Shown here: positions 12,673 to 56,767 of the stretch, in pieces
Position numbering within the stretch: position 1 is the first letter of the stretch
How the letters are laid out: the number at the start of each line of letters is the position of its first letter
Origin: an uncultured Gammaproteobacteria bacterium
Lineage (GTDB): Bacteria > Pseudomonadota > Gammaproteobacteria > JAADHQ01
Assembly (NCBI GenBank): GCA_947258655.1
Contig: CAMYJD010000012.1
Coordinates: 13,323-77,322 of the forward strand
DNA length: 64,000 nt
Reading direction: 5' to 3'
Translations under genes and position numbers: made by a program
The notes under the pieces: model-generated
Told to the model about the DNA's origin: nothing
Databases searched by the model: none
The model's input: the letters and a program-made list of their open reading frames with translations, nothing else

Positions 12673-12963
12673 TCAATCGTGTTTTCTGTAACAGGCGCCC
12701 TTTATATCCATCATTGCCTGTATACTTTCGACACCGCTCAAGTGCTCCAGCAGGCAATTGTTGTATGCCCGTCTCTTGTCTGATGTAAAACTGGGGCTTC
12801 CATAGTTCTCTTCGCAGGCCCGCTTTATCACACGTGCTGCTACATCGAGTTTTACCCCCTTCAGGTGCTTCAGAATACAATCATCGTATTCGGATTGACC
12901 TGCCAATACTGGTACCGACAACATGACAGACAGTATGCTGATAATAATCGGTGCATGTTTCAT
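12673..12963 (-). CDS. small secreted protein with two internal Cys-containing repeats
   Basis: MKHAPIIISILSVMLSVPVLA signal peptide; repeats DCILKHLKGVKLDVAARVIKRACEEN and NNCLLEHLSGVESIQAMMDIKGACYRK; GGAG RBS. Confidence 0.4.
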   Translation of the reverse strand: MKHAPIIISILSVMLSVPVLAGQSEYDDCILKHLKGVKLDVAARVIKRACEENYGSPSFTSDKRRAYNNCLLEHLSGVESIQAMMDIKGACYRKHD

Positions 12964-13006
12964 ATTGACTCCAATACCTGGGTAACGGCCTGTTATTATG
13001 GACTCT

Positions 13007-15511: not shown

Positions 15512-16102
15512 ATGCACGCTCAACAATATACAAAGGTATGGGATCCGTTTGTACGCATCTTTCATTGGGCGTTGGTCGCCGCTTTTGTGCTGGCCTATGT
15601 TACGGAGGATGAGCTAATGACGCTGCATGCCTGGGCCGGTTACAGCGTCCTCGCCCTGGTAGTAAGCAGGATTATCTGGGGTCTGATCGGCAACCGCCAT
15701 GCGCGTTTTCGCGATTTTGTTTATTCACCGGGCACGATTATGCAGTTTCTCAGGGATACGTTGCATCTACAGGCGAAGCGCTATCTGGGCCACAACCCGG
15801 CCGCTGGTGCGATGGTTATCATGCTGTTGTTGAGTCTACTGATCACATCATTGACCGGTCTGGTTGTATATGGCGCAGAGGAGGCTGCCGGCCCGCTTGC
15901 AGGCTGGGCCAGCCAATTCGGCCATGACCTGGCTGAGGCATTCGAGGAAGTGCACGAATTTTTTGCCAATTTCACGTTATTTCTGGTGTTCCTGCATGTA
16001 GCCGGGGTGGTCCTGGAAAGCATGATACAGCGTGAAAATCTGGTTGCGTCAATGATCAATGGCAAAAAACAACTCAGACATCAGGAGACTGAGCAAAAAT
16101 GA
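15512..16102 (+). CDS. cytochrome b561-family membrane di-haem protein
   Basis: 196 aa; VWDPFVRIFHW and HNPAAGAMV motifs, four TM helices. Confidence 0.8.
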   Translation: MHAQQYTKVWDPFVRIFHWALVAAFVLAYVTEDELMTLHAWAGYSVLALVVSRIIWGLIGNRHARFRDFVYSPGTIMQFLRDTLHLQAKRYLGHNPAAGAMVIMLLLSLLITSLTGLVVYGAEEAAGPLAGWASQFGHDLAEAFEEVHEFFANFTLFLVFLHVAGVVLESMIQRENLVASMINGKKQLRHQETEQK

Positions 16103-16167
16103 TAGCGCAACAATTAATCACTGGCTATTCACAAATCTGACATTACTATTATACAAAGGAGTACACG

Positions 16168-16470
16168 ATGAAAAAACGTAACATGCTTATTATTATCGGT
16201 GCCGCGATCATTGGCTACCTGTCTTTAACTCAGGCAGATACACATGATGAGGCCAGATCACTGCGTGATCAGGGTGAGATCCTGGCGCTGGAGACAATAC
16301 TGGAGCGCGCCCGCAAGGATTATCCCGGCAAGGTCATCGAAGTGGAACTGGAGAGCGAACACGGTAGCTACCTGTATGAGATCGAGATTCTCGACAAACA
16401 GGGCAGGGTATGGGAACTTGAATACGATGCCCGTACTGGTGAACTTGTAAAACAGGAGCAGGATGACTGA
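16168..16470 (+). CDS. PepSY domain secreted protein
   Basis: 100 aa, signal peptide; PGKVIEVELESEHGSYLYEIEILDKQGRVWELEYDARTGEL. Confidence 0.75.
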   Translation: MKKRNMLIIIGAAIIGYLSLTQADTHDEARSLRDQGEILALETILERARKDYPGKVIEVELESEHGSYLYEIEILDKQGRVWELEYDARTGELVKQEQDD

Positions 16471-16482
16471 CGCAGGTAGCCT

Positions 16483-17151
16483 ATGAGACTGTTATTGATC
16501 GAGGATGACATAACACTTGTACAACAGTTGAAACCGGAACTGGAACGTTGCGGTTTCGCTGTTGATGTCAGCCATGACGGTGTCGAGGCTGAATATCTGG
16601 GCAATGAGGCTATCTATGACCTTGCCATCCTCGATCTCGGTCTTCCCAAACGCAGTGGTATTGAGGTACTGAGAAACTGGCGCAAGCATGATAATCATAT
16701 ACCCGTCATCATATTGACCGCACGCGATGACTGGCATGAACGAGTGGATGGTTTTCAGGCAGGCGCCGATGATTATCTGGGTAAGCCCTTTCATAGTGAA
16801 GAACTGATCGCACGTATCCAGGCATTACTGCACCGCGTCCATCAGCAGCCTGCCGGGCTGCTAAAGGCGGATGGCCTGAGCCTGGATGAGGAAGCACAAT
16901 CCGTCCGCCTCGATAGCGGAGCCACCTATACGCTGACCAACACCGAGTTCCGCCTGTTACGTTACTTCCTCCTGCACCCGGATAAACCGTTATCAAAAAT
17001 GCAACTGAGCGAACATGTCTATGAACTGGATGCAGACAAGGACAGTAATGTCATCGAGGTCTATGTGCGACGCCTACGGGAAAAACTGGGCAAGACGCGT
17101 ATCGAGACGCGGCGAGGGCAGGGCTATGTATTTCGGAGCCGGCTGACATGA
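16483..17151 (+). CDS. OmpR-family response regulator
   Basis: receiver (LLLIEDD..DLGLP) plus winged-helix C-terminus. Confidence 0.9.
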   Translation: MRLLLIEDDITLVQQLKPELERCGFAVDVSHDGVEAEYLGNEAIYDLAILDLGLPKRSGIEVLRNWRKHDNHIPVIILTARDDWHERVDGFQAGADDYLGKPFHSEELIARIQALLHRVHQQPAGLLKADGLSLDEEAQSVRLDSGATYTLTNTEFRLLRYFLLHPDKPLSKMQLSEHVYELDADKDSNVIEVYVRRLREKLGKTRIETRRGQGYVFRSRLT

Positions 17152-18503
17152 AGTCGATCAAGCTGCGACTGGGCATAGGCATCCTGCTGAGTATTTCAGC
17201 TGTTTTTATACTGCTATGGCTGGCCGGCAGTCATAGCATCCGTTTGCTGGTCGTGGAGCAAATGTCGACCAGACTGATGCATGATAGTGAGGGCCTGTTA
17301 GCACACCTGACTTTCGACACGGCAGGACAGATACTACTTGATCCGTCTGGCATAGACTCGATATACCAACGACCGTTTTCCGGTCACTACTATATTATCC
17401 ACTCCGGCACTGTACGCCTGCGTTCGCGCTCGCTGTGGGACAGTGACCTGGCATTACCATCAGAGCAATCCCTGCAAACACGTCAATTGCATGTGCAAGG
17501 ACCACAACAACAACCGTTGCTGGTGCTGCAAACGATCTATCTGAAACAGGGTAATACAATCACGATCGCAGTCGCAGAAGACCTGACGATGCTTGAACAG
17601 CAGATCTCGCGCTTCCATTACTGGTTTGGTCTGGTTGCGCTTGCGGTATTGGCATTACTGGTGCTGTTGCAGGTCTTTATTGTTCGCGTTGGCCTGTCAC
17701 CTTTATACCGGGCACGTCAACAGATTACTGAACTCGAGGCAGGCAAGCGCAATGCGCTTGATTACGATGTGCCAACAGAATTACAACCACTCGTGCATGA
17801 AATCAATAAGCTAGTGTCGCGTATTACACAACGCCTGCAGCGTTCGCGCAACGCACTCGGTGACCTGGCACATGCATTGAAAAAACCGTTGACGGTACTC
17901 GCACAACTGAATCAGGACGAATGCTTGCATAATTGTAATGACATTCGCAAACAGATGGAGTATCAGACCAGCGACATACAGCGCAGCATCGATCATGTGT
18001 TGAAACGCGCACGCCTTGCCGGTGAAGGACCGCCAATCTCGCAGTTTTCATTGCAGCATGATCTCCCCGCGCTGCTTGATACACTGGCCAGAATGTACCC
18101 ACAAAAGGAAATTGCGTCTTCACTGGCCGTCGATGATCATGAGCGAGTACCCTTCGACCGTGAAGACATGATGGAGTTACTGGGCAACATCATCGACAAT
18201 GCCTGTAAATGGGCGCGACACAAGGTTCTGCTGGATGTCGACATCAGCGATAGCGTCCACATACGCGTACAGGATGACGGTCCCGGTATTGACGAGCACA
18301 ACTTGCGTCAATTGACTGCACGAGGGACACGCCTGGACGAAAAAACCAGTGGCCATGGGCTGGGGCTCGCTATCGCCGAGGATATTGTGCGCCAGTACAG
18401 TGGCAGCCTGTCGTTTACCAGCACACGGCAGTTTGACAATGGCCTGTGCGTGGACATCCATTTACCTCTCAGGCATGACTCAGACAACAGCGGCACCGAA
18501 TAA
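17148..18503 (+). CDS. sensor histidine kinase (2 TM, HAMP, HisKA, HATPase)
   Basis: overlaps the RR gene by 4 nt; G-box GHGLGLAI. Confidence 0.9.
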   Translation: MKSIKLRLGIGILLSISAVFILLWLAGSHSIRLLVVEQMSTRLMHDSEGLLAHLTFDTAGQILLDPSGIDSIYQRPFSGHYYIIHSGTVRLRSRSLWDSDLALPSEQSLQTRQLHVQGPQQQPLLVLQTIYLKQGNTITIAVAEDLTMLEQQISRFHYWFGLVALAVLALLVLLQVFIVRVGLSPLYRARQQITELEAGKRNALDYDVPTELQPLVHEINKLVSRITQRLQRSRNALGDLAHALKKPLTVLAQLNQDECLHNCNDIRKQMEYQTSDIQRSIDHVLKRARLAGEGPPISQFSLQHDLPALLDTLARMYPQKEIASSLAVDDHERVPFDREDMMELLGNIIDNACKWARHKVLLDVDISDSVHIRVQDDGPGIDEHNLRQLTARGTRLDEKTSGHGLGLAIAEDIVRQYSGSLSFTSTRQFDNGLCVDIHLPLRHDSDNSGTE

Positions 18504-18714: not shown

Positions 18715-19581
18715 TTGGCTATGCAGGAATTTTGTAAAATATTGTTGATACCACTGCTGTATGCATCGGCTTTCATGCCATGGCATCTATATGCGGGAGA
18801 AGATCCATTAAAGATGGGCATATTTCCGCGCCGTAATGCCACCGCGACACTGATCTCCTTCAAGCCCCTGGCCAATTACCTTTCGCAACAGCTCGGCAGG
18901 CAAGTGGAGCTGCACACTGCAGGGGATTTTACCAGTTTCTGGAACAACGTTGCGGCGCGGGAATATGATATCGTGCACTACAACCAGTATCACTATATCA
19001 AGTCCCGCAAGGTCGGCTACAGCGCCATACTGAAGAACGAGGAATTCGGCAAGACAACCCTGAAGGGTGCAATCTATGTCAGAACAGACAGCGGCATACA
19101 ATCCCTGCAGGACCTCAAGGGCAAGACCATCATCTTCGGCGGTGATACCAAGGCCATGATTTCGTACGTGGTGCCAACGGCGATATTACGACGAGCCGGC
19201 CTTAAGCCGGGTGATTACCGGGAAAAATTCTCCAAGAACCCCCCCAATACGCTGCTATCCGTCTATTTCGGCCAGGCCGATGCTGCCGGTACTGGTGACA
19301 TCATCCTCAAGATACCTACGGTAAAAAATTCCGTCGATACGTCACAAGTAAAACTGTTGGCCGAAAGTGAACCACTGGCACACATCCTGTGGGCATTGAA
19401 GGATACTATGGATCCCGATCTGCGCAACAGGATTACAAATGCATTGCTTGCACTAAATAACTCGGCCGCAGGCAAGAAAATATTAAAGCAGGCAAAGATG
19501 ACCGGCCTGCACCAAGCCTCGGACAGTGAATATAATGCCCATAGAAAATACCTGCAGGAAGTATTTGGTGGCAACTACTAG
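18715..19581 (+). CDS. PhnD/SsuA-family periplasmic substrate-binding protein (paralogue 1)
   Basis: 288 aa, signal peptide; shares blocks such as IYVRTDSGIQSLQDLKGK with the paralogues. Confidence 0.7.
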   Translation: MAMQEFCKILLIPLLYASAFMPWHLYAGEDPLKMGIFPRRNATATLISFKPLANYLSQQLGRQVELHTAGDFTSFWNNVAAREYDIVHYNQYHYIKSRKVGYSAILKNEEFGKTTLKGAIYVRTDSGIQSLQDLKGKTIIFGGDTKAMISYVVPTAILRRAGLKPGDYREKFSKNPPNTLLSVYFGQADAAGTGDIILKIPTVKNSVDTSQVKLLAESEPLAHILWALKDTMDPDLRNRITNALLALNNSAAGKKILKQAKMTGLHQASDSEYNAHRKYLQEVFGGNY

Positions 19582-19606
19582 AAATTACAGCGAAGCGCAC
19601 AGTGCG

Positions 19607-21916
19607 ATGTCATCACGGCCTGAAAAAAAACGTCTCAGCCTCGGTACGACCTTTATTCTCGTGGTCAGCGCTGTATTGTCTGTTGCGATGGGTATTTCCA
19701 TATACGTCAATAACACGATCCAGCAGAATGTTTTTCTGGAGCAGATCACGACCAAGGGTGAGGCACTGGTCAGTTTCACCGCATTAATCAGTTCCGATGC
19801 GGTACTGGGTCACGATTTTTTGCTGTTGAATCAATATATGAAAGAAATATCACAGCAGCAGAATATCGTCTATGGTGTTATTTATGCGGCAGACGGCAGA
19901 AATCTGACCGCTTATCTGAATAATGAAAACCCTGTAGTACAGCAGCACCGGGATTCTGATTTTATCCGTACCATTAACAATATAAACTCGGACCAGCGTA
20001 TACTCACGCTGCAGCATCCGATAGAAGCGGGGGAAAAGATCGGCTCGGTCATACTCGGTATCGATACCAGCAGAACGACGCTTCTGGCCAATGCGGCCAT
20101 GAGAAACCAACTTACTCAAGGTGTGATCACTATACTGATACTGTCCTTGATTATTTATCTTATATTCCGTTCACGCACGCTACGGCCGATTACTGCACTG
20201 ATACAACATACCCGTGATGTCATGAATGGCAAGCTCGAACATAAAGCCACAATACCCAACAGCCATGAGCTCGCAGAGCTTGCCGAGTCGTTCAATCGGA
20301 TGACCGAGGTACTTGCCGCCAGTAATGCAAGCAAGGACGAGGCCATGGACATGATGAGTCGGGCCAACCTCGACCTGCAGGCAGCGACCAAGGCAAAAAG
20401 CGAATTTCTCGCTAATATGAGCCATGAAATACGTTCGCCACTGACAGCCATTATTGGTTTCGGTGAAACCATTATGAATGCCAACACGACACCGTCCGAG
20501 CGCCATGATGCCACCCAGGCGATCATTCGTAACGGCGTGCACTTGCAGGGCATTATCAGTGACATCCTCGACCTGTCCAAAATCGAGGCGCAGAAACTGG
20601 AGATCGAGTCTATCGAGGTTTCGCTATTCGATTTACTCGCCGATATCGGCAGCCTGATAGAAGTCCAGTCACGTGAACAAAGTATTGAAACCAGTATCGA
20701 TTATCGGTTTCCAATACCGGGGAAGATTTATACCGACCCGATGCGGCTGAAGCAGATCCTGATCAACTTATGCAACAACGCTATCAAGTTTACAGCCAAG
20801 GGAAGTGTTCGCCTCGAGGTGAGTTACAACAGGCTCCAGGAACAGATAAAGTTTGATATTATAGATACAGGCATTGGCCTGTCGCCCGAGCAACAACAAA
20901 AGATTTTCGATCCATTCACACAGGCCGACTCGTCCACGACGCGTCAATATGGTGGCACCGGTCTGGGCCTGCCACTATCGAGGCAATTGGCCGAGATGCT
21001 CGGTGGCGGCATTTCTGTCAGCAGTAAAACGGGGATTGGCAGCCGCTTTACCGTGTCTATCGGCGCAGGATCTGTCGCACCGGATACTCTTATAGATGTA
21101 TTACCCGGTACTAGCGAACAAAACAAACCTGTGCAGCAAACAGAACCCGCCAAATTAACAGGAGATATACTGCTGGCAGAGGATTTACCCGACAACCAGA
21201 AATTGATATCCATCTTCATACGTAATCTGGGTGCCCGGGTTACGATCGCAGAGAACGGTAAAAAGGCTGTAGAAGCCGCACTCAACAATAAATTCGACCT
21301 GATCCTGATGGATATGCAAATGCCTGTTATGGATGGTATCGAGGCGGTAAAGTATTTACGCTCGCATAACTATACAGGAGCCATTATCGCGTTGACTGCA
21401 AATGCGATGAAGGAAGACCGGGAAAGATGCATGCAGGCGGGCTGTGATGAATTTCTGACAAAACCCATTGAGCGGACAACTTTTAATGAAACATTGACTC
21501 GGTATCTACAGGATAATACTGCCAGTAATGAGGCTGACGATGTCATTGTTCCTGACATCAATGACGATTTCGGTATGCTCGACATAACCAGGTCTTTTGT
21601 CCAGCGTTTACCTGACAAGCAAGCCAGCATAAACGAGGCATTCGAAAACCGGGACTGGGCAACACTGGGCCGCCTGGTGCATGACCTCAAGGGATCGGGT
21701 GGCGGGCTTGGATATCCTGCCGTCACCGAAGCCTGTAGAGACATCGAATCAAAGCTTCGTAACAAAACTATGCATGATGCATCACGGCATGCCGATGGCC
21801 AGGAAGACCCCGAATCTACGGCCGCTATAAGAGACTCTATCGAAACATTACATTCGCTCTGTGAACGTATCATCAAGGGGTGGGATGTTACTTACAATAA
21901 AAACAATATAGCCTAG
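19607..21916 (+). CDS. hybrid sensor histidine kinase (TM-periplasmic loop-TM-HAMP-HisKA-HATPase-REC-HPt)
   Basis: start taken at MSSRPEKKRL; H-box MSHEIRSPL; receiver DLILMDMQMPVMDG; HPt HDLKGSGGGLG. Confidence 0.85.
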   Translation: MSSRPEKKRLSLGTTFILVVSAVLSVAMGISIYVNNTIQQNVFLEQITTKGEALVSFTALISSDAVLGHDFLLLNQYMKEISQQQNIVYGVIYAADGRNLTAYLNNENPVVQQHRDSDFIRTINNINSDQRILTLQHPIEAGEKIGSVILGIDTSRTTLLANAAMRNQLTQGVITILILSLIIYLIFRSRTLRPITALIQHTRDVMNGKLEHKATIPNSHELAELAESFNRMTEVLAASNASKDEAMDMMSRANLDLQAATKAKSEFLANMSHEIRSPLTAIIGFGETIMNANTTPSERHDATQAIIRNGVHLQGIISDILDLSKIEAQKLEIESIEVSLFDLLADIGSLIEVQSREQSIETSIDYRFPIPGKIYTDPMRLKQILINLCNNAIKFTAKGSVRLEVSYNRLQEQIKFDIIDTGIGLSPEQQQKIFDPFTQADSSTTRQYGGTGLGLPLSRQLAEMLGGGISVSSKTGIGSRFTVSIGAGSVAPDTLIDVLPGTSEQNKPVQQTEPAKLTGDILLAEDLPDNQKLISIFIRNLGARVTIAENGKKAVEAALNNKFDLILMDMQMPVMDGIEAVKYLRSHNYTGAIIALTANAMKEDRERCMQAGCDEFLTKPIERTTFNETLTRYLQDNTASNEADDVIVPDINDDFGMLDITRSFVQRLPDKQASINEAFENRDWATLGRLVHDLKGSGGGLGYPAVTEACRDIESKLRNKTMHDASRHADGQEDPESTAAIRDSIETLHSLCERIIKGWDVTYNKNNIA

Positions 21917-22233: not shown

Positions 22234-23580
22234 CTATTTGCCTATACAGAAACTAGAAAATATCTTGCCGAGTAAATCATCACTGCCAAACTCACCGGTA
22301 ATCTCAGCCAGGTCCTGTTGTGCCTCGCGCAGTTCCTCGGCTGCCAGTTCACCGGCCCTTGCCTGTTGCAGTTGCTCTCTGGCCATGTGTAAATGCCGGC
22401 CTACCCTTTCCAACGCATCTACATGGCGACGGCGTGCAATAAATTCACCTTCTCCCCCTGCATGATAACCGACACATTGTTCCAGGTGTTTTGTTAGCAG
22501 CTCGACACCCTGTTGTTGTTTAGCCGATATTGTAATCACGGGAGGTTCGACCATTTCCATTGTCGCATCGTTGCCGCTCAGATCACATTTGTTGCGCACG
22601 ATCGTCAGCGCCGGGCCAGACGGCAGTTGCTGCAGTATTTGTCTATCCTCGTCTGTAACACCGTCGCGGTCGTCTACCAATAACAGCACGCGATCCGCCT
22701 TTTCGATTTCTGACCAGGCGCGCTGAATGCCTATTTGTTCTACCCGGTCTTCGCTGTCCCTGAGTCCGGCGGTGTCAATGATATGCATCGGTAATCCATC
22801 GATGTGGATATGTTCACGCAATACATCGCGGGTAGTACCGGCAATCTCGGTAACAATCGCCGATTCCTTGCCGGCCAGCGCGTTCAGCAGACTCGACTTA
22901 CCGGCATTGGGTCTTCCGGCGATGACTACGGTAATACCTTCATGTAACAGGCTTCCCTGCCTTGTTGATTCCATCAGGCTGGAAAAATCCCTGTCCAGCT
23001 GGTCCAGACGAAGATAAATATTATTATCGGACAAAAAATCGATTTCCTCTTCGGGAAAATCGATCGCCGCCTCGATGTACATCCGCAGTTCTGTCAGGCT
23101 TATTAGCAGCTCGTTGACGCGTTGCGAAAAAACCCCCTGCAAGGAACGCACGGCCGCACGTGCCGCCTGTTCACTACTGGCATCGATAATGTCGGCGATG
23201 GCCTCTGCCTGGGCCAGATCAAGTTTGTCATTGAGGAAGGCGCGTTCGGAAAATTCGCCCGGCCTGGCTATGCGTGCACCAGCCTTGATACATTGTTGCA
23301 GGATCAGGTCGAGAATGACCGGACCGCCATGTGCTTGCAGTTCGAGGACGTCTTCACCGGTAAATGAATGCGGATGGGGGAAGTATAACGCGATACCCTG
23401 ATCCAGTACCGCGCCATCTTCATCGGTAAAGGGCAGATATTCGGCCTGTCTTGGCTGCGGGACCTTGGCGAGGATGCGTCTGGCTATGTGCTGACAATAA
23501 GGACCGGATATACGAATGATACCGACACCTCCCCGGCCAGGGGGTGTGGCTAGTGCGGCTATGGTGTCACTGTTCATCAA
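22234..23580 (-). CDS. mnmE: tRNA modification GTPase MnmE/TrmE
   Basis: 448 aa; G-domain [12 protein letters not shown]; C-terminal CIGK. Confidence 0.95.
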
Positions 23581-23653
23581 CGCGCTAACCTTTCCCTGCT
23601 ATGTATTCTGCAGATACGATTTAACGAGAAAGGGGACTTGCAGTCCCCTTTGT

Positions 23654-25327
23654 TTATTTCGCCGATTCTATTCTTTTCGTTATAACCCACTGTTGTGTTA
23701 TTGACAGCGCATTATTGACGACCCAGTACAATACCAGGCCCGACGGGAAAAACAGGAAGAATATGGTAAACACAAAAGGCAGGGCCATCATGACCTTGGC
23801 CTGAACCGGATCCAGTGGTGCAGGATTCAGTTTTTGCTGGATGAACATGGTCGCGCCCATCAGTATCGGTAATACATAAAACGGGTCCTTCGCCGACAGG
23901 TCTGTAATCCACAACATAAACGGTGCCTGGCGCAATTCCACTGCCTCCAGCAATACCCAGTACAGCGCAATGAAAACCGGTATCTGCACGAGGATAGGCA
24001 AGCATCCACCGAGTGGATTGATCTTCTCCTTTTTATATAAATCCATCAATGCCTTGTTCATACCCTGGCGGTCATCGCCATAGCGCTCTTTCAGGGCCTG
24101 CATTCGTGGCTGCATCTTGCGCATATTGGCCATCGATTTATAACTGGTCTCGGACAGCTTGTAGAATGCCAGCTTGATGATCAAGGTCAGAAAGATGATG
24201 GCCCAACCCCAGTTACCTAACAGACTATGCAATGCACTCAGTAACCAGAACAGTGGCTTGGCGATAACTGTCAGGAAACCATAATCCGCAGTCAGTTCAA
24301 GACCGGTAGCAATATCTTCCAGGACATTCTGGTCTTTGGGACCGGTGTACAACTGACTGCTGAATTGCTTGCTCTGTCCAGTTCCTATTGTCTCGGCCGG
24401 AGATATCATACCGAGGTAGTAACGGTAGTTCAGATAATTACTGTAAAAGCTGTTAGTGTCTTGTGCATTTGGTGCCCAGGCAGCCAGAAAGTAATGCTGC
24501 ATCATCCCGATCCAGCCACCCTGGACGTTACTACGATTCAGTTTACTTTCCTGCATCTGGCTGAAATCAATCTTTTCATAGAGCTCTTCAGGGGTATAGA
24601 TAACACCGCCCATGTAGGTCTGCATCATGAACATGGAGGTTGATTCCTCACCATAATGCGTGCGCTGTAATTGGCGATAGAAACTACCCTGCCAGTCAGA
24701 CGCTGACCCGTTTTCAACCTTGACCTTCATATCGATCAGATGGCTGGAGCGCTTGAAGGTATAGGTCTTGGTCACCTTGACACCTGTGTCATCACTCCAG
24801 GTCAGGACAACATCTAATGTGTCCTCACCTTCGCCCAGCCTGTACTCGGTCTTGTCGGCGTTGAAGCGCGTCTCATGTGTCGGCCCGTTACCTTTAAGCA
24901 TGGAAAAACCGGATTGCGCTACATACAGTTTTGCACCCTCGTCAGTCATTAACTGAATGGCCTGTTCGGGTTTATCCTGTTCTAGTGGATACTTGCGCAA
25001 GAACACTTCGCGTATATCGCCACCCAGTGTATCCAGCGTGACCTGTAGATAATCGGTAATAACCTGTATGCGCTGATCTGATTCGAGCTTGTTGGCTTCA
25101 CCACTGATCGTTGGGCCGCTAGGCTTTACCGGTTGGGCGGCTGCCGGAACATCACCGGGTACAGCCGGTGCCGGTACTGCGCTGGCGGATGTTGCTGCGC
25201 TGTCACTGCCGCTACTGACCGTAGTTGGTACAGTGCTACTGACGCCGTAGTCACGTTGCCACTCCTGGTATAGCAACATGCCAAGAAAGACGAGCGCGAT
25301 AATGATAAAAAGCCGTTGATTTTCCAT
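23654..25327 (-). CDS. yidC: membrane protein insertase YidC
   Basis: 557 aa; conserved position after yidD-rnpA-rpmH. Confidence 0.95.
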   Translation of the reverse strand: MENQRLFIIIALVFLGMLLYQEWQRDYGVSSTVPTTVSSGSDSAATSASAVPAPAVPGDVPAAAQPVKPSGPTISGEANKLESDQRIQVITDYLQVTLDTLGGDIREVFLRKYPLEQDKPEQAIQLMTDEGAKLYVAQSGFSMLKGNGPTHETRFNADKTEYRLGEGEDTLDVVLTWSDDTGVKVTKTYTFKRSSHLIDMKVKVENGSASDWQGSFYRQLQRTHYGEESTSMFMMQTYMGGVIYTPEELYEKIDFSQMQESKLNRSNVQGGWIGMMQHYFLAAWAPNAQDTNSFYSNYLNYRYYLGMISPAETIGTGQSKQFSSQLYTGPKDQNVLEDIATGLELTADYGFLTVIAKPLFWLLSALHSLLGNWGWAIIFLTLIIKLAFYKLSETSYKSMANMRKMQPRMQALKERYGDDRQGMNKALMDLYKKEKINPLGGCLPILVQIPVFIALYWVLLEAVELRQAPFMLWITDLSAKDPFYVLPILMGATMFIQQKLNPAPLDPVQAKVMMALPFVFTIFFLFFPSGLVLYWVVNNALSITQQWVITKRIESAK

Positions 25328-25335
25328 TGTTATAA

Positions 25336-25566
25336 TTACTTCTGTTGTTTGTTAACTTCCGGGACGGGATCAACGCCACCGGGTGACCACGGATGGCAAC
25401 GCAGTATCCGCCGTAATGCCAGCCAGCTTCCATATACAGCACCGTGCCTATGAATCGCGGTATGCGCATAACACGAGCATGAGGGATAAAATCGGCAATG
25501 ATTACCCAGAAGCGGGCTTATTATATATTGGTATGAACGAATAATGAAAATCAGGATTGTGCGCAT
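25336..25566 (-). CDS. yidD: membrane protein insertion efficiency factor YidD
   Basis: 76 aa, [18 protein letters not shown]. Confidence 0.9.
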
Positions 25567-25922
25567 TTTTTTACTAGCCTGTCCCAGTGTTTTGACAGAG
25601 AGCGATGTATCTCATTATTACTCCTGTCCTGCAAGCCTTTTTTCGCCAGTACGACGATATCGAGCCCCGGTAACATGGCCTGGCGGGCGCGAAAACTTTC
25701 ACGCACGAGGCGTTTAATTCGGTTACGTTGCACGGCACTGGCAATACTCTTCTTCGCTATCGCCAGCCCCAGCCTTGCGTTTTCGCTGTGATTCACACAT
25801 GCCAGAATAGTAAATAACTGATCACTGGATCTGAGTGGATCTGCAAATACCTGCTGGTATTCATTGCGGTTCAACAAGCGCAGCGAGCGCGGAAAACGAC
25901 AGCTGGGATTTTGCTCATTCAA
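25551..25922 (-). CDS. rnpA: ribonuclease P protein component
   Basis: 123 aa basic protein in canonical position. Confidence 0.9.
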
Positions 25923-26063
25923 AAAAAGCGCCTTAAAAATTGTGGATTTAAGGTCTGGACCGATCTGATGGGGCAGATAACAGATGTTGGCTTGAAACTC
26001 TCGCAGTAGGAATGTCTACTCGCTTAAACGGGCATGCATGTGACCCGCTACAGTAGCTATATA

Positions 26064-26198
26064 TTAAGGAGTCAGACGCTTGCGACCCTTGGCACGCCTG
26101 GCGTTAATTACAGCACGGCCGCCGCTTGTACTCATACGTGCACGAAAACCATGGTTGCGTGCCCTTTTTAATACACTGGGTTGGAATGTTCTTTTCAT
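26064..26198 (-). CDS. rpmH: 50S ribosomal protein L34
   Basis: rc translation [44 protein letters not shown]; absent from ORF track (below length cutoff). Confidence 0.9.
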
Positions 26199-26297
26199 AT
26201 CGCCTTACCTGATTAACGCGCCGGAACAAGCCGGAATTAATGAACCGGCAATCCTACTGTGTCATGCAGGGCATGTCAACCGAAAAAATAAATCACT

Positions 26298-26321
26298 TTA
26301 TCCACTCTGCATTGTGGATAA
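26298..26321. promoter_or_regulatory. pair of DnaA boxes in rpmH-dnaA spacer (TTATCCACT, TGTGGATAA)
   Basis: read directly from sequence; dnaA autoregulatory region and possible origin. Confidence 0.6.
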
Positions 26322-26393
26322 CTTTGAAAAATAGAGTTAGAATCCGAGGATAACGAAGTTATTAACAACCTCTCCAACAAGAAGGGAGCCCTC

Positions 26394-29077: not shown

Positions 29078-32648
<3,571 letters not shown>

Positions 32649-35019: not shown

Positions 35020-35898
35020 ATGTATCATGGCACAAGACAATGTAGCAGATTTTTATCAATTATCGCGGTGTTACTATTGTCTGGCCTGTCAACACAGAGC
35101 GCTTTTTCATCAAATGATAGCATCAAGATGGCTATTATTTCGCTGGCGCCACCTGCCAAAATTTATAGACAATGGCAGGAGTTTGCAGATTACCTGTCTA
35201 GTAAAACAGGCCGGGAAGTAAAAATTATTGTTCCACGAGGCTTCAAGAAAATAAAATCGGCGGTTGAGGATAAGACAGTCGATATTTTTTATGTCAATTC
35301 GCATATATTCTACAAGTTAACAGAGGCACAAAAGGCCGAACCACTTGCACAGATGATGAATCTGGATGGCAGCATATACAGTAATAGTGTTATGTTTGTG
35401 CGCAAGGACAGCGGAATTGATTCCTTACAACAACTCAAGGGTGAAAAAATTGCGTTTGTTGCTCCGATGGGTGCGGGTGGTTATCTTGCACCAAGGGCAG
35501 CATTCTATGACGCCGGAATACAAACAAAAGTAGATACTGAAGAGAAATTCACCAAAAACCTGACTTCATCTGTCCATAAGGTATTACTGGGAGATGTCAA
35601 AGCGGGCACAATGTGTGGCCTGAACTACAAATTAATGAGTGAACGCATCAAGACGGGCGACCTGAAAATCATTGCATCGAGTGCTGACTATCCTGAAAAT
35701 GTATTTGGTATTCGTGCGGATTTGCCAGCAGCATTAAAAAAGCAGATCTCTGAAGTCATGATTGGTATGGATAAGGATATAAACGGCAGAAAGATTCTTG
35801 ACGGAATGAAGGGCATGAAAATAAAGAAATTCGTAAAATATGATCCTGAAACAGAACACACTACCAGAGCATTGCGTAAAAGCGCAGATTTCAAATAA
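35020..35898 (+). CDS. PhnD/SsuA-family periplasmic substrate-binding protein (paralogue 2)
   Basis: 292 aa, signal peptide; VRKDSGIDSLQQLKGEKIAF. Confidence 0.7.
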   Translation: MYHGTRQCSRFLSIIAVLLLSGLSTQSAFSSNDSIKMAIISLAPPAKIYRQWQEFADYLSSKTGREVKIIVPRGFKKIKSAVEDKTVDIFYVNSHIFYKLTEAQKAEPLAQMMNLDGSIYSNSVMFVRKDSGIDSLQQLKGEKIAFVAPMGAGGYLAPRAAFYDAGIQTKVDTEEKFTKNLTSSVHKVLLGDVKAGTMCGLNYKLMSERIKTGDLKIIASSADYPENVFGIRADLPAALKKQISEVMIGMDKDINGRKILDGMKGMKIKKFVKYDPETEHTTRALRKSADFK

Positions 35899-36025: not shown

Positions 36026-38254
36026 ATGAGACTTAGCCTGAATACACGTATGGTCATCAGCCTGTTAGCACTCGTGCTAACGGGCTTTATTGTGCTTGCC
36101 ATTGTATTACTGACTAATGCGAAATCGCGTATCGATCAGTTTCTGGAAACCCAGGCCGTCTACCAGGTACAAACCCTGGCTCAGGCCAGCCTCGATGGCC
36201 TGGTATCAGAAGATTATGAATTACTTGAGAGTTGGGTAAACTCATCGATCCCTTCCGATAATTATGCCTATGCAGCCCTGGTAAGATCCAATGGTCAGGT
36301 TATGTCGCATACTGATCCTAATTATATAGGGAAAAATATTACAACAATAACAGGTGTTAGTAAGCATGTGTCGCGCATATCGGAATATCAACAGCGACCG
36401 GTCAAGGAAATAATTAGCCCGGCAAAGATTGGTGGACAAGTTCTGGCAAATGCCCATGTGGCCTATTACATGGACGCTGGAGAATTTATTAACAGAGATA
36501 CAGCCGTTGAGATACTGATTATTCTTACGGTCATTTTTACTGTTATTCTGATCGCTGGTTATATGCTTATGCGAGGTATAACCGGACCGATAGAAATATT
36601 ACGCCAGATTATTTCAAAGTCGTCACTTGATAAATCAGTCAACATTGACCAGAAAATAATTAATCGTGCGGATGAAGTCGGTGATCTTGCACGTGCGTTC
36701 GAGGATACTTCAGAAAGATTGGTCCATTAACCAATAAGGCGATAGTCGAGACATCCAATGATGGCATTATTGTTATTAATGAAAAAGGGATTGTTGAATC
36801 AATTAACTCTGCCGCAGAAAATATTTTTGGTTATACGCCTGCAGAAGTAGTTGGGCATAATGTATCCATGCTGATGCCGGAACCCTATGCACATGAACAT
36901 GACGGTTATATAGAAAAATATCATCAAACCGGTAAAGCATCGATTATAGGTAAAAGAAGAGAGCTTGCAGCTAAACGCAAGGACGGAAAAATTATACCTA
37001 TTGAACTGGGTATCGGTGAAATAGTATATGAAGGAAAGGCGCGTTATGCAGGGACTGTGCGTGATATTACAGATCGTAAGGAGTATGAGAATGCCCTTGT
37101 TGAAGCGAGGGATGCATCAGATAGAGGAAACCGTACAAAAACACGATTCCTGGCCACAATGAGTCATGAATTACGAACCCCCATGAACGCAATTATGGGT
37201 GCAATGGGGCTGTTGAAAGATGTGGATATACCAGAAGAGGAGAAGAATTTCCTGGTATGTGCTGAAAAAGCTGCGGGTGAGTTGCTTGAGCTAATAGATA
37301 ATGTCCTTGACTTTACCGATCTTGAATCTGGTAGTGTAGCGCTGGATTTAAGTGGTTTTAATCTACTGGAAATGCTGGAGACGATTCATACGAAATATAA
37401 CGATGTATTGGCCGATATGCCGGTCAGTCTGGATCTGGAAATTGCAGACGGCATACCCGATTTATTAATCGGTGATTTTCGACGTATTAATAATGTCCTG
37501 GAAAAACTCGTTCAAAATGCCATCAAATTCACTTCTGAAGGCAGCATTGTATTACGTGTCATAACGGAAGGCATGTCGAATAACAAGATAAATCTGAAAT
37601 TCGAGGTATGTGATACAGGCATAGGAATAGACGAGCAGGATCAACAAAGCATATTCGACAGTTTTACCCAGGCAGATGATTCATACACCAGACGCTTCGG
37701 TGGAACAGGTATCGGGCTTAGTATATGCAAGGCGTTGGTTCAGGTAATGGGGGGCGAGATTGGTGTTGAATCCGAAGCGGAAAAAGGCAGCAGGTTCTGG
37801 TTTACTCTTTCACTGGATGTAATAAATATGCAAGCGCCTGCAAATACAAAAGCAGCGGAGCCAGTTGTCGAAATAGACAGGCCAGGTCAAAGTGCCCGAC
37901 TGCTGGTTGTCGAGGATGACATCAGTAATCAACGCATAGTTCAGGCCATGCTGAACAGGCTGGGATTTTATTCGGATATCGCCGAAAATGGCAGAGTTGC
38001 GCTGCAAAAACTTGAACAGTCTGACTATGATCTCATATTAATGGATTGCCAAATGCCGGTCATGGATGGATTGGAAGCGACCAGGAAAATCAGACAATTA
38101 GAAACAAACAGGGAGCATATACCAATCATTGCTGTCACTGCGAACTCGATGGAGGGTGACAAGGAAAAATGCCTTGAGGCCGGTATGGATGACTATGTCA
38201 GTAAACCCATTGATATGCAATGTCAGTAAACCCATTGATATGCAATTACTCAAA
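36026..38254 (+). pseudogene. hybrid sensor kinase (TM-loop-TM-HAMP-PAS-HisKA-HATPase-REC) disrupted by a frameshift near 36720-36735 and a 25-bp tandem duplication at its 3' end
   Basis: ORFs 36026-36730 and 36868-38229 are continuous in protein space after a -1 shift. The PAS segment TNKAIVETSNDGIIVINEKG.. begins in the other frame. Removing the duplicated 25-mer restores ..KPIDMQLLKTAIVDWLK*. Confidence 0.65.
38197..38246. repeat. perfect 25-bp tandem duplication GTCAGTAAACCCATTGATATGCAAT x2
   Basis: read directly from sequence. Confidence 0.85.
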
Positions 38255-51791: not shown

Positions 51792-52814
51792 ATGATTATG
51801 TTTAATCGATACCTTACACGCATCAATTGCGTGCTGATGTGTTGTGGCTGCCTGTTTATGTCTGGTTGCGATGAGCAACAGCAAACAACTTCCACGACCG
51901 GACCGTCTTTGACAACGGTAAAGATTGCCGTGTCTACAACACCATTGTCGGCTCCGTTTTATGTAGCACAGGCCAATGGCTATTTTACCGAGCAAGGCCT
52001 GAATGTGGCATTCGTTGATACCATTGGCGGTAACCGTTGTCTGCAAAAAGTGTTGGACGCCGAGGTCGACATGGGCACTGCATCTGATTACCCGGTGATG
52101 ATAAAGAGTTTTGCACACAAGGATTTTACCATCGCGGCGACCTTCGTCAGTTCGGTGAATGATGTAAAACTCATTGCCAGTAAAAAAAATGGTATTAATG
52201 AGCCTGCGGAGCTAAAAAATAAAATAATAGGTACGGTTACCGGCGCATCGAGTCATTATTTTCTCGACCGCTTTCTGCTGCTCAATAATATGAGTCTGGC
52301 CGATGTCAATGTGATTCATGTCGATCCGGAAGCCCAGCCAGCCGCGCTTGCCAACGGAGATGTGGATGCGCTGTCGGTATGGGAACCCTATGCCTATCTG
52401 GCGAAAAATGCCCTGCAGCATGACAGTGTTATTTTTTCATCGGGCGAGTATTATCGCGAAACATTCAATCTGGTCATGAACAAGGATTATATTAAAAACA
52501 ATGCCGATACGGTCAGAAAAGTCCTGCTGGGATTGGCCAGTGCTATTGAATTTATCAAGCAGCAGCCTGACAAGGCACAACAACTGCTGGTTAAAAGACT
52601 CAAGCTGGATAACGCCTTCATCGACTGGATATGGGATGATTATGATTTTGCATTAACGCTCGATCAGTCGCTGCTGAATACACTGGAGAATGAAGCCAGG
52701 TGGGCATTGCAGCATGGTATCGTCAACAATGGTACGGCAGTCAATTATCTTGATTATGTTGATACCGGCATACTCAAGGATATTGGTGGCGCCAGGATAA
52801 CTATTATCCAGTAA
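51792..52814 (+). CDS. SsuA/NMT1/PhnD-like periplasmic substrate-binding lipoprotein (paralogue 3)
   Basis: 340 aa; lipobox LFMSGC. Confidence 0.65.
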   Translation: MIMFNRYLTRINCVLMCCGCLFMSGCDEQQQTTSTTGPSLTTVKIAVSTTPLSAPFYVAQANGYFTEQGLNVAFVDTIGGNRCLQKVLDAEVDMGTASDYPVMIKSFAHKDFTIAATFVSSVNDVKLIASKKNGINEPAELKNKIIGTVTGASSHYFLDRFLLLNNMSLADVNVIHVDPEAQPAALANGDVDALSVWEPYAYLAKNALQHDSVIFSSGEYYRETFNLVMNKDYIKNNADTVRKVLLGLASAIEFIKQQPDKAQQLLVKRLKLDNAFIDWIWDDYDFALTLDQSLLNTLENEARWALQHGIVNNGTAVNYLDYVDTGILKDIGGARITIIQ

Positions 52815-52816
52815 AC

Positions 52817-54733
52817 ATGACCATCCGGGGCAAACTGTTATCTATTATATTCTCGGCCATTGTTGCCGGCACCGGCGTCATAGCCATGACGATTTATTCG
52901 GTCCAGGCCGTCAATGAAGCCATCAGTAAGGAACGGCAGAGCAGTCAGATCACCAGCAAGATCTCGGCACTGCTGCTGCTCACACAGGAATATCTTATCC
53001 TACCTTCTCCTCGTATCCAGCAACAATGGAAAATAATCTATGCCGCATTGACTGATAAAGTAAGGATGCTCAGCTCTGACGCTAACGCGGAGCGAATATT
53101 GACCAGAAAATTGGAAGCACATCTTGGATCACTCAATAGCCTGTTTGACAGGATTGTTGCACTGCATGTTTCGGAACAGCATGAAGCTGAGAACGAGTTC
53201 AAGCAATTACAACTAAAAAATGCATTGACGGGTAGACTGTTGGTCGAGGCCGGCCAGGTACAGGATCATTCCAATGAAATCAAAAGGATTAAAATACAGA
53301 ACGTATATAGCCTGCAAGACCGTAACAACCTGTTATTGATGGTTTTCATTCTGGCGCTGGCACTGGTCAGTATCGTTATTGCCTACATGGTCCTGCGAGG
53401 TATAGTCAGACCTATTGCTATCCTCAAACAGGAAACGTCTATGATCAGTCAGGGTAAATTTGAGCACCCGATACAAGCATTCGGTGACGATGAATTCAGC
53501 GATCTGGCATATTCTTTCGAAGATATGCGTAAAAATCTGTTGGACACCATGGTTTCGAAAAAGCAGCTTGAATCATATATTGAAGAGCGTACTGCAGAGT
53601 TGAGGGAGGCCAGGGATCAGGCCGAAAAGGCCAGCATGGCAAAATCCCAGTTTCTGTCCAGTATGAGCCATGAACTGCGTACACCATTGAATGCCATCCT
53701 GGGTTTTGGGCAACTGCTGGATGTCCATGACGGTGTGGTAACTGATAAGGTTGCATATGAATATGTCAATGAAGTCCTCAGGGCGGGATATCATTTACTC
53801 GATCTGATTAACGAAGTACTGGACCTGTCGCGTATCGAAAGCGGAAACCTCGATATTCAAATAGAACCTGTGCCGTTGAAAAACGCAATCACAGAATGTC
53901 TAAGCCAGCTCAAAGCAGGACTGGCCAGTAAACATAATATCACCCTGAACAATCAGATCGATGATCCAGACCTCGTTGTTCTGGCGGATCCACGCAAACT
54001 CAGACAGGTTTTTATCAATCTTCTCAGTAATGCGGTCAAATACAATGTTAACGGCGGTTCCGTTACTATCATGACCGAAGCGATAGGAGAGGAGCGGGTA
54101 TGGATATTATTTACCGATACCGGCAAGGGCATAGCAGCAAAAGACATGCACAAGCTGTTCGATCCGTTTGAGCGACTGTCATACAAGCATAGCAACATCG
54201 ATGGTACCGGTATTGGCTTGACCGTTACCAGGCAGCTTGTGGAGGCAATGGAGGGCACCATTGGTGTAGAAAGTATCGAGGGCCAGGGTTCTACCTTCTG
54301 GGTGGAAATGCCTTTGGCGACGACAACCCGGACTGCCACTGACAGCGAAACAACAGCTGCTGGAAAAAAATTCAAACTGTTATATATCGAAGACGATCCA
54401 ATGAATACGCGACTGATTCAGGACGCGCTTAAGTCCAGAGAGAACATTGAGGTCATTACCAGCTCGACAGCGGAGCATGGTATCACCCAGGCCGATGAGC
54501 AGCTCCCGGATATAATCCTGATGGATATCAAGCTGCCTGGCATTGATGGATTTGCAGCGCTCGAAATTCTCAGAAATGTTGAGGCGACAAATGATATCCC
54601 GGTCATTGCGCTTACTGCAAATGCCATGAACGGTGATGCACAGGCGTACCGTGATGCGGGGTTTAATGGTTACATCAGTAAACCGATTGATATGCAGCAG
54701 TTGTACAAAGTCATCGATGAATATTTAATTTAG
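52817..54733 (+). CDS. hybrid sensor histidine kinase (TM-loop-TM-HAMP-HisKA-HATPase-REC)
   Basis: H-box MSHELRTPLNAI; receiver DIILMDIKLPGIDG. Confidence 0.85.
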   Translation: MTIRGKLLSIIFSAIVAGTGVIAMTIYSVQAVNEAISKERQSSQITSKISALLLLTQEYLILPSPRIQQQWKIIYAALTDKVRMLSSDANAERILTRKLEAHLGSLNSLFDRIVALHVSEQHEAENEFKQLQLKNALTGRLLVEAGQVQDHSNEIKRIKIQNVYSLQDRNNLLLMVFILALALVSIVIAYMVLRGIVRPIAILKQETSMISQGKFEHPIQAFGDDEFSDLAYSFEDMRKNLLDTMVSKKQLESYIEERTAELREARDQAEKASMAKSQFLSSMSHELRTPLNAILGFGQLLDVHDGVVTDKVAYEYVNEVLRAGYHLLDLINEVLDLSRIESGNLDIQIEPVPLKNAITECLSQLKAGLASKHNITLNNQIDDPDLVVLADPRKLRQVFINLLSNAVKYNVNGGSVTIMTEAIGEERVWILFTDTGKGIAAKDMHKLFDPFERLSYKHSNIDGTGIGLTVTRQLVEAMEGTIGVESIEGQGSTFWVEMPLATTTRTATDSETTAAGKKFKLLYIEDDPMNTRLIQDALKSRENIEVITSSTAEHGITQADEQLPDIILMDIKLPGIDGFAALEILRNVEATNDIPVIALTANAMNGDAQAYRDAGFNGYISKPIDMQQLYKVIDEYLI

Positions 54734-55936: not shown

Positions 55937-56767
55937 ATGGCTTACAAAATAAAACGCGCAATGATAAATCTGGGGCTCATGGCCGCAATCGTTATGCCTG
56001 GAATGGTATCGGCCGAATTGATCTTTACGGCCCCGCCACGTGAAACCCCGGAGGCAGGCCAAAAGCTCTATGGCCCGCTGGCTGAGCATTTGTCTGGACT
56101 ACTGAATGAAAAGGTCGCGTATCAGCATCCCGGCAACTGGCGTAAATATAAAAAGGATATGCAAAAGGGCGTCTATGACATCGTCTTTGATGGTCCGCAT
56201 TTTGCCGCCTGGCGTATGCAGAAAAAACAGGCGGAAGCGGCGGTAAAATTACCCGGCCAATTGAGTTTTGTACTGGTCGCGCGTAAGGATCAGAACATAT
56301 CCGACAAGAAACAGCTGATCGGCAAGAAGGTGTGCACGCTGCCATCACCTAATCTGGGTGCGATGACCGTGTATTCAATGTATCCGAATCAGATGAGCCA
56401 GCCGAAATTCACGTTTATTAAGGGTGGCTTCAAGAAAGTAACGAAGTCCATGATGGCCGGCAAGTGTGTTGCGTCAATAATGCGTAAGTCATTTTTCACC
56501 AAGAAACTGCCACAGGAAACACGTGACAAGCTGGTCGTGCTGGAAATCAGCAAGCCTTATGTAAACCAGGGTATGACATTGAATGCACGTATCCCTGCGG
56601 CCAAGCGCAAGATGATCATCGAGTCGTTAACCAAGGGTGAAGGCAAGAACGCAGCGCGCCCGTTGTTTGAGCGTTTCAGCGCCAATGCCACCAGCTTTAT
56701 TATTGCTGAAGGCAAGGAATATGATGAACTGAACCTGCTGAAAAAGAACAATATGTTTGGTTGGTAA
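55937..56767 (+). CDS. PhnD/SsuA-family periplasmic substrate-binding protein (paralogue 4, no adjacent kinase)
   Basis: start at MAYKIKRAMINLGL; signal peptide; followed by a strong terminator. Confidence 0.65.
   Translation: MAYKIKRAMINLGLMAAIVMPGMVSAELIFTAPPRETPEAGQKLYGPLAEHLSGLLNEKVAYQHPGNWRKYKKDMQKGVYDIVFDGPHFAAWRMQKKQAEAAVKLPGQLSFVLVARKDQNISDKKQLIGKKVCTLPSPNLGAMTVYSMYPNQMSQPKFTFIKGGFKKVTKSMMAGKCVASIMRKSFFTKKLPQETRDKLVVLEISKPYVNQGMTLNARIPAAKRKMIIESLTKGEGKNAARPLFERFSANATSFIIAEGKEYDELNLLKKNNMFGW

Follow-up and report, generated by a model that had tools for sequence, protein, structure and literature searches.

What does a periplasmic binding protein do when the gene just downstream encodes a sensor kinase and no transporter gene lies beside it? 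This question is raised by a stretch of 64,000 nucleotides (hereafter the window) of contig CAMYJD010000012.1, positions 13,323 to 77,322 (assembly GCA_947258655.1), from an uncultured Gammaproteobacteria bacterium of the JAADHQ01 lineage. The window encodes four signal-peptide binding proteins (SBPs; SBP1 to SBP4) and three hybrid sensor histidine kinases (HK1 to HK3). An original prediction, made from the sequence of the window, had described three paralogous binding protein-kinase pairs and a fourth, orphan binding protein, although the interval that it named, 18715-21916, covers the first pair only. In this study, we established the gene order and domain composition of the pairs, the conservation of the pairing in relatives, the folds of SBP1 and of the HK1 sensor, and the loss of the canonical oxyanion site. 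We consider it likely that each of SBP1, SBP2 and SBP3 is a periplasmic co-sensor of the kinase encoded just downstream, on which it would dock in a ligand-dependent manner.

The four binding-protein genes predicted at 18715, 35020, 51792 and 55937 were confirmed by analysis of the open reading frames (ORFs) and by Pfam, and all four products have N-terminal signal peptides and periplasmic binding-protein folds. SBP1, SBP2 and SBP4 passed the PF12974 cut-off of 27 bits with 191, 192 and 74 bits, respectively, whereas SBP3 belongs to NMT1/NMT1_2, has no PF12974 match in Pfam and shows nothing significant in BLASTP comparisons with the three others. SBP1 is identical to the database protein P0001, for which the start is placed at 18721. 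The transport equivalogs of NCBIfam were not reached: for PhnD (TIGR03431, cut-off 261 bits) SBP1 scored 100.5 and SBP2 119.2 bits and SBP4 had no match, and SBP3 scored 111 bits for SsuA_fam (cut-off 163.5) and 46 bits for TauA (cut-off 304). Membership of SBP3 in the SsuA/TauA transport group was rejected on these missed cut-offs, on the lack of ABC (ATP-binding cassette) genes in the window and on the presence of a HAMP sensor neighbour in four of four relatives. At the sequence level, SBP3 matched the PDB entries 3qsl, 3e4r and 2x26 at 1e-11 to 1e-13, the best PDB matches of the SBP2 family profile were ArrX (1.3e-20) and PtxB (2.9e-20), and SBP4 had no significant PDB match. From its lipobox (FMSGC followed by DEQ), SBP3 is a probable lipoprotein.

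A kinase gene in the same orientation lies downstream of each of SBP1, SBP2 and SBP3, at distances of ~25 nt (counted to the ATG at 19607; the mechanical ORF of HK1 begins at GTG 19526), 127 nt and 2 nt, within the 150 bp initially predicted. The three kinases have a common layout in Pfam, namely a transmembrane segment (TM), a periplasmic loop, a second TM, HAMP and HisKA-HATPase_c-Response_reg. The loops are of ~130-140 residues rather than roughly 150, however, and the layouts are not the same throughout: HK1 ends with an Hpt domain that HK3 lacks, HK2 has an extra PAS domain, and HK2 is split. The periplasmic domains of the window kinases gave no Pfam match at E<=0.01, and those of related partners gave weak hints only (CHASE8, 0.012; sCache_3_2, 0.055).

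We asked whether the pairing is conserved. Relatives of SBP1 (42-58% identity) were collected at 81 loci, 80 from species-representative genomes and one via a look-up of the exact protein; the ORFs of these loci were searched with HK1 segments and with GGDEF and EAL segments, and example outputs were confirmed by Pfam. At 69 of the 81 loci, phmmer found homology (1e-5 to 1e-47) between HK1 residues 1-190 and the N-terminal TM-periplasmic-TM region of a membrane protein encoded within 3 kb. The cultivable Marinobacterium sedimentorum (L057) is among the relatives with this pair. These 69 partners comprise 14 hybrid kinases, 47 HAMP-(PAS)-GGDEF-EAL proteins, encoded downstream of the binding protein in 27 cases and upstream in 20 (mainly Burkholderiales), and 8 partial proteins. 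Four of the other 12 loci also have a GGDEF-EAL partner, the N-terminal region of which was not detected as HK1-like. Because the cytoplasmic outputs vary among partners, it is the periplasmic sensor domain, rather than the output, that goes with SBP1, as would be expected of two proteins that make contact in the periplasm. The intergenic gaps are mostly of -3 to +30 nt. In addition, the distances between binding proteins correlate with those between the sensor domains of their partners (Mantel r 0.80; maximum of 2000 permutations 0.17), a correlation computed with no species-tree control and to which shared phylogeny contributes. Five metagenome-assembled genomes carry two SBP1-type loci each, and several pairs per genome thus appear normal in these lineages.

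Four related loci on long contigs were sampled for each of SBP2 and SBP3. All four relatives of SBP2 (51-64% identity) have a TM-loop-TM-HAMP sensor encoded 0-16 bp downstream, three of these being kinases and one a PAS-GGDEF protein, and their periplasmic cores match that of HK2 at 1e-31 to 1e-37. The relatives of SBP3 (41-67% identity; Sulfuriflexus, including the cultivable S. mobilis at locus L086, Desulfuromonadaceae, Geobacter and one metagenome contig) all have a HAMP sensor 4-22 bp downstream, including three kinases, two of them hybrid, with periplasmic cores matching that of HK3 at 4e-29 to 2e-5. As each type of pair recurs in unrelated genomes, the adjacency is not a matter of chance. 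The statement that no ABC permease or ATPase gene accompanies the pairs, the discovery of which would have indicated transport, was borne out as well. Across the 64-kb window no plausible coding ORF of at least 100 residues carries an ABC_tran or ABC permease domain in Pfam, so that the statement holds for the whole of these 64 kb, and no ABC ATPase or permease gene adjoins the SBP gene in ~89 related loci; ORFs with ABC motifs occur at some of these loci, on the other strand or several kb distant. Since the pairing with the sensor domain is kept across output types and ABC genes are missing from the window and from beside the relatives, these data point to a signalling role of the binding proteins.

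Table 1. Positions in the window of the binding-protein genes, the kinase genes and the elements within them.
Feature	Position	Strand	Description
SBP1	18715..19581	+	periplasmic PF12974 (PhnD/PtxB-fold) binding protein; signal peptide ...LYA/GED; Pfam 2.5e-56
HK1	19607..21916	+	hybrid sensor kinase: TM1, PDC-like periplasmic domain, TM2, HAMP, HisKA, HATPase_c, receiver (REC), Hpt
HK1 periplasmic domain	~19712-20107		PDC-like
HK1 HAMP	20165-20314
HK1 HisKA	20393-20590
HK1 HATPase_c	20735-21061
HK1 REC	21167-21490
HK1 Hpt	21587-21850
SBP2	35020..35898	+	periplasmic PF12974 binding protein; signal peptide ...SAFS/SND; Pfam 1e-56
HK2 N-terminal fragment	36026..36730	+	TM1, periplasmic domain, TM2, HAMP; ends at stop codon made by the frameshift
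HK2 C-terminal fragment	36727..38229	+	other frame: PAS, HisKA, HATPase_c, truncated REC
HK2 PAS	~36730-37100
HK2 HisKA	37138-37332
HK2 HATPase_c	37471-37815
HK2 REC	37903-38217		truncated
25-nt perfect tandem duplication	38195-38219 and 38220-38244	+	ATGTCAGTAAACCCATTGATATGCA x2, within end of HK2 receiver domain
SBP3	51792..52814	+	NMT1/SsuA-like binding protein; Pfam NMT1 4.7e-26, NMT1_2 8.2e-14; database start 51798
HK3	52817..54733	+	hybrid sensor kinase: TM1, ~140-residue periplasmic domain, TM2, HAMP, HisKA, HATPase_c, REC
HK3 periplasmic domain	52904-53329		~140 residues
HK3 HAMP	53390-53542
HK3 HisKA	53639-53845
HK3 HATPase_c	53987-54319
HK3 REC	54380-54715
SBP4	55937..56767	+	divergent PF12974 binding protein; signal peptide ...MVSA/ELI; Pfam 1.4e-20

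Residues 1-215 of HK1 were modelled with AlphaFold2 from 48 representatives of a search of 1.84 billion proteins. In the model (pLDDT 94.3), a long helix at the N-terminus is followed by a short one and by a beta-sheet interspersed with helices, and another long helix leads out of the domain; the HK1 sensor is thus predicted to be a single PDC/Cache-like domain. The AlphaFold2 model of SBP1 (pLDDT 90.6) has the bilobal PhnD-type fold, and its top Foldseek matches are PtxB, ArrX, HtxB, AioX, Escherichia coli PhnD and XAC2383.

In Te_PtxB, the oxyanion is contacted by Tyr71, Tyr100, Ser130-Thr131-Ser132 and His160 and capped by D22 and Y208 (PMC5700983; PMC5908839), and the AioX pocket is made of Cys106, Ser161, Ser163, His192, Tyr88 and Tyr131 (PMC5908839). 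The contact residues of Te_PtxB, PhnD and AioX were mapped onto alignments of 120 homologues for each of the SBP1 and SBP2 families. In the SBP1 family, D22 is replaced by Arg, Tyr71 by His and Ser130 by Ala (each 100%), Thr131 by Met (98%), His160 by Pro (99%), Tyr100 by Ile, Val or Leu and Tyr208 by Leu or Ile, and Ser132 is variable. This series (R, H, I/V/L, A, M, variable, P, L/I) is paralleled in the SBP2 family by L/I, Y, S, G, A, G, L, N/D: one Tyr persists, while G-A-G stands for S-T-S, Leu for His160 and Asn or Asp for Tyr208. In the comparison with ArrX, Asn takes the place of Cys in SBP2, and G-A-G that of S-F-S. SBP4 has R, F and L at contact positions and LGAMT at the S-T-S loop. 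The register within this loop depends on the alignment, and no alignment restores S-T-S. Because the oxyanion contacts are replaced, the phosphonate, phosphite or sulfonate-like ligands put forward earlier are unlikely for SBP1, SBP2 and SBP4. The high conservation of the cleft positions argues nevertheless that a specific ligand exists. In P0001 numbering, R37, H86, N88, Q89, Y92, A145 and M146 are the invariant residues of the SBP1 pocket.

Are the three pairs copies of one module, as had been predicted? Pairwise BLASTP comparisons gave 25% identity between SBP1 and SBP2, 22-24% between either of them and SBP4 (N-terminal half only, ~110-140 residues), and nothing significant for SBP3. Recent paralogy of the four binding proteins and the three kinases was ruled out by these values of 22-25% identity or none. 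At the profile level, the N-terminal modules of the HK1 and HK2 families are related (hhalign 97.9%, E 5e-13, over 198 columns that take in the periplasmic part). BLASTP gave no match between the periplasmic parts of HK1 and HK2 themselves, and a hidden Markov model of the HK1-family periplasmic core alone matched three of five HK2-family sensors and not HK2 itself. The HK3 family aligns with both families through TM2 and HAMP only. As the profile-profile comparisons link the loops of HK1 and HK2 and not that of HK3, pairs 1 and 2 are best described, from their sequences, as two distant clades of one old module that joins a PF12974 binding protein to a PDC-like sensor with HAMP and kinase or GGDEF-EAL outputs. 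Pair 3 would be an analogous module, in which an NMT1-type binding protein is joined to a different sensor domain, probably helical on reading of its sequence. One module repeated three times is hence not what the window contains.

Pair 3 is missing from three metagenome relatives (L091, positions 3865-5592, L092 and L093) that keep the order glyS, glyQ, the gene at 50852-51457, the radical-SAM gene and SBP4. The proteins flanking window positions 51458-54911 are 63-94% identical in these relatives, and in two of the three (L091 and L093) an ORF of ~135 residues occupies the site instead. On this comparison, the SBP3-HK3 pair appears as an insertion/deletion polymorphism. Pair 2 lies in a stretch of low GC content (34000-38000; 0.38-0.43 compared with ~0.47-0.50 in the surroundings), which could reflect horizontal acquisition. 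Because pair 3 is absent from relatives and pair 2 lies in this stretch, the occurrence of three pairs in a 36-kb span belongs to this genome and does not reflect a conserved super-operon. SBP4 is, as predicted, an orphan: it has a radical-SAM gene on one side and an MTS methyltransferase gene on the other, with no signalling or transport gene beside it. This order is kept in four of five related metagenome loci, none of the five having a sensor-like or ABC-like neighbour, and SBP4 is thus a lineage-conserved orphan without a nearby partner.

HK2 had been taken as intact, and two lesions had been missed. A frameshift between HAMP and PAS splits the gene into ORFs 36026-36730 and 36868-38229: in a tblastn comparison, the homologous kinase that partners the binding protein of locus L083 aligns with frame 3 up to ~36724 and with frame 2 from ~36679 onward. 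The linker at ~36680-36730 is ~8 residues shorter than in this homologue. The N-terminal fragment has weak NCBIfam matches to the YfiR-like-associated histidine kinase and to YfiN. Further downstream, the 25-nt duplication shifts the frame, cuts the REC domain short and places the stop of HK2 at 38229; when HK2 is read without the duplication, the protein ends with ...KPIDMQLLKTAIVDWLK and the stop is at 38279-38281. Judged from its sequence, HK2 looks like a pseudogene next to an intact SBP2, and pair 2 probably does not function in this genome. These breaks mean either that the pair is decaying or that the assembly is faulty, the duplication being a recent mutation or an assembly artefact. 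A scan for promoters and terminators around pair 2 gave nothing better than shuffled sequences.

How would such a co-sensor work? The binding protein would be exported, SBP3 probably remaining lipid-anchored, and would bind a small ligand in the cleft between its lobes. In its liganded or free state it would then dock on the periplasmic domain of the kinase, which is PDC/Cache-like in HK1 and HK2 and unrelated, and probably helical, in HK3. Docking would shift TM2 and HAMP and so change the autokinase/phosphatase activity, and the phosphoryl group would be transferred to the receiver domain of the kinase, in HK1 also to its Hpt domain, and on to response regulators encoded elsewhere. The physical docking, the direction of the regulation and the ligand are what we infer here.

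Several points weigh against this co-sensor reading. No response regulator is linked to HK1, HK2 or HK3 in the window. The canonical ligand site is remodelled in SBP1 and SBP2, which makes ligand binding itself less certain. The pairing of SBP2 and SBP3 rests on four related loci each, and pair 2, with its kinase disrupted twice, may be non-functional or wrongly assembled. Moreover, co-regulation and shared phylogeny can also yield adjacency and co-variation. Finally, the search was limited to 64 kb, and these binding proteins could serve a transporter, be it ABC, TRAP or of another type, whose genes lie elsewhere. The last point leads to an alternative in which the SBPs work mainly for an importer, of the ABC type or another, with genes outside the window, and the kinase regulates uptake, with or without contact with the SBP, as with ChvE, CBP-ChiS and BctC. 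PF12974 and NMT1 are indeed classic families of ABC-transport binding proteins, and several of the SBPs known as co-sensors work with transporters too (table 1 of PMC8050422). However, ABC genes are lacking both in the 64 kb and beside the SBP gene in the ~89 related loci, the transport equivalogs score far under their cut-offs (PhnD 100-119 against 261, SsuA_fam 111 against 163.5), and the oxyanion contacts of the transport proteins PhnD and PtxB are replaced family-wide. We regard this alternative as unlikely.

The binding protein might also act without a ligand, as a constitutive partner, inhibitor or target of the sensor in the manner of YfiR-YfiN or LapD-LapG; the GGDEF-EAL relatives would then perhaps signal from the cytoplasm to the periplasm. 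A match to a LapD-like fold and the resemblance of many relatives to LapD in their architecture are in line with this idea, but many other PDC domains score nearly as high, Pfam LapD_MoxY_N gave no match, and no LapG-like protease is encoded nearby. Such inside-out control would also leave a hybrid kinase with REC and Hpt without an obvious meaning, and the near-invariance of the cleft positions in the SBP1 family (Arg, His, Ala, Met and Pro at 98-100%) speaks for a specific pocket, which makes this explanation quite improbable. It is very improbable that the SBP and kinase genes have no functional connection and became neighbours by chance or through local gene shuffling. The three pairs do lie in unrelated housekeeping contexts near the replication origin, and pair 3 is absent from close relatives; yet the pairing of SBP and sensor recurs across classes and phyla while the flanks differ, the gaps are of 0-30 nt in most loci, and the divergences of SBP and sensor domain co-vary. 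The co-sensor role of SBP1, SBP2 and SBP3 accordingly remains the reading that we favour.

What the SBP1 clade senses can be approached from its hosts and neighbours. The relatives of SBP1 occur mostly in sulfur-oxidising Gammaproteobacteria, Burkholderiales and Nitrospirota. In Burkholderiales loci (L018, L042, L064 and others; positions ~4800-12200), a GGDEF-EAL sensor with an HK1-like periplasmic domain is encoded with two tandem SBP1-like genes. In this conserved cluster, the SBP genes are followed by those for a membrane-anchored CxxCH protein of ~190 residues, a protein of ~365 residues and, on reading of the sequence, a seeming SulP-type permease. These neighbours and the hosts give no more than a hint of sulfur chemistry, and the cluster may bear on the signal or target of the SBP1 clade. 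A more speculative proposal, which we hold to be rather unlikely as a whole, is that SBP1-type proteins, and perhaps SBP4, which has the Arg and Ala-Met substitutions in common with them, form an uncharacterised clade of PhnD-fold receptors for a non-phosphorus signal. The rebuilt pocket, with its invariant Arg, His, Asn-Gln, His-Tyr and Ala-Met, may then accept a reduced sulfur species or a metal. The clade may act through one PDC-like domain not annotated in Pfam on phosphorelays or cyclic di-GMP turnover, chiefly in sulfur-oxidising Gammaproteobacteria and Burkholderiales, and SBP3, with its different sensor kinase, may represent a second, independent invention of such signalling.

The surroundings of the pairs are those of a chromosomal origin region, with gidB, gidA, mnmE, yidC, rnpA, dnaA, dnaN, recF, gyrB and glyQS recognised by their Pfam domains. 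The replication-origin gene set mnmE to gyrB occupies 22234-32648, and the cumulative GC skew has its minimum at ~24-28 kb, consistent with an oriC close to dnaA. Directly upstream of SBP1 (15512-18503) lies a separate sensory cluster with a cytochrome b561, a PepSY protein, an OmpR-type regulator and a classical kinase, HK0, in which a HisKA domain was not reported at E<=0.001. The region 12140-13026 encodes, next to an unannotated ORF of 117 residues, a protein of 160 residues with a receiver and a Fis-type HTH domain but without the central AAA+ domain of NtrC-type regulators; this protein may be a regulator that is naturally short, or a remnant. At 9016-11347, a DsbD-type membrane protein and a MerR regulator (Pfam) are accompanied by HMA-like metallochaperone and thioredoxin-like ORFs (sequence reading), in a small cluster with a seeming role in metal or redox handling. 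Two intergenic regions, 8598-8655 and 38319-38376, have a 58-nt stretch in common (76% identical), which may be a small repeated element. An Rfam scan of the window gave zero matches.

For this genome, the pairs represent ordinary regulatory content and not a new mechanism. Their wider interest is that SBP-dependent sensing is thought to be common and a handful of systems have been studied; the loci described here add two large PF12974 clades and one NMT1 clade, all uncharacterised and apparently dedicated to signalling, for which the label 'phosphonate ABC transporter substrate-binding protein' is misleading. A unit of SBP and sensor domain with swappable kinase or cyclic di-GMP outputs would be a clean system in which to study an SBP-driven PDC domain, and the family-invariant pocket residues give a direct handle on the ligand.

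Among known systems, the closest precedents are XAC2383-XAC2382, AioX-AioS and ArrX. A 2018 study of XAC2383-XAC2382 reportedly described a Cache-domain partner and homologous pairs with varied cytoplasmic outputs in many phyla. As in pair 1, a PF12974-fold SBP adjoins a co-oriented membrane signalling protein with a periplasmic Cache/PDC domain, and there is no transporter; the SBP1 relatives likewise keep a Cache/PDC-type partner domain while the outputs vary. The XAC2383 structures 5ub3 and 5ub7 (series 5ub3-5ub7) superimpose on the SBP1 model with TM scores of 0.74-0.76 and 16-17% identity in the fold alignment. The SBP2 profile matches XAC2383 at 2e-6, and the SBP1 profile does not at E<=0.01. 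In contrast to the hybrid kinases of the window, XAC2382 has a diguanylate cyclase output, and while XAC2383 reportedly binds phosphate-containing anions, SBP1 and SBP2 are without the usual oxyanion residues. From these profiles the two clades appear to be only remotely related to XAC2383.

In AioX-AioS-AioR, ArxXSR and ArrXSR, a PF12974 SBP comes first in a two-component system, beside the kinase, as in pairs 1 and 2 (PMC5908839; PMC8050422), and AioS, like HK1, is listed with an unannotated sCache-like sensor domain (PMC8050422). However, the AioX/ArrX modules have a cognate response regulator and aio, arx or arr enzymes, whereas the window pairs have neither and their kinases are hybrid; no molybdopterin oxidoreductase and no aio, arx or arr enzyme gene was found in the 64-kb window. 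Membership in the arsenic-sensing group was ruled out for pairs 1 and 2 because both pocket and context fail: SBP1 is changed at all pocket positions, and SBP2 has Asn for Cys, G-A-G for S-x-S and Leu for His.

The original prediction had compared the pairs with TorT/TorS and LuxP/LuxQ. The conserved pairing supports the signalling logic of this comparison, but the families differ. The window SBPs are of type II (PF12974 or NMT1) and not of type I (Peripla_BP), the type to which TorT and LuxP belong. The TorS and LuxQ equivalog scores of the kinases are far under the cut-offs, HK3, HK1 and the HK2 C-terminal fragment reaching 345, 338 and 333 bits for TorS (TIGR02956, cut-off 676.5 bits), and in LuxQ the sensor consists of a double PDC, in HK1 of a single one. 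Pair 3 would work like TorT-TorS, with which it has neither SBP family nor equivalog score in common, although part of the HK3 loop matches the membrane-proximal part of the TorS model. No characterised co-sensor of the NMT1 type was found for it in the literature searched. In NspS-MbaA of Vibrio cholerae and in ScrB-ScrC, an SBP homologue controls a TM-loop-TM-HAMP-GGDEF-EAL protein, which is the commonest type of partner among the SBP1 relatives (47 of 69); NspS is a polyamine-binding PotD-like protein, of a family other than that of SBP1, and the window partners are kinases. In the tetrathionate sensor TtrS, a PhnD-like domain is fused to the kinase, whereas the window SBPs are separate secreted proteins; the sensor part of the TtrS model weakly matches SBP2 (8e-14) and SBP1 (1.7e-6), far under the 750-bit cut-off. 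The subfamilies described here and their ligands are uncharacterised, while the co-sensor design that they appear to follow is already known, the logic of SBP-dependent sensing being established (reviewed in PMC8050422).

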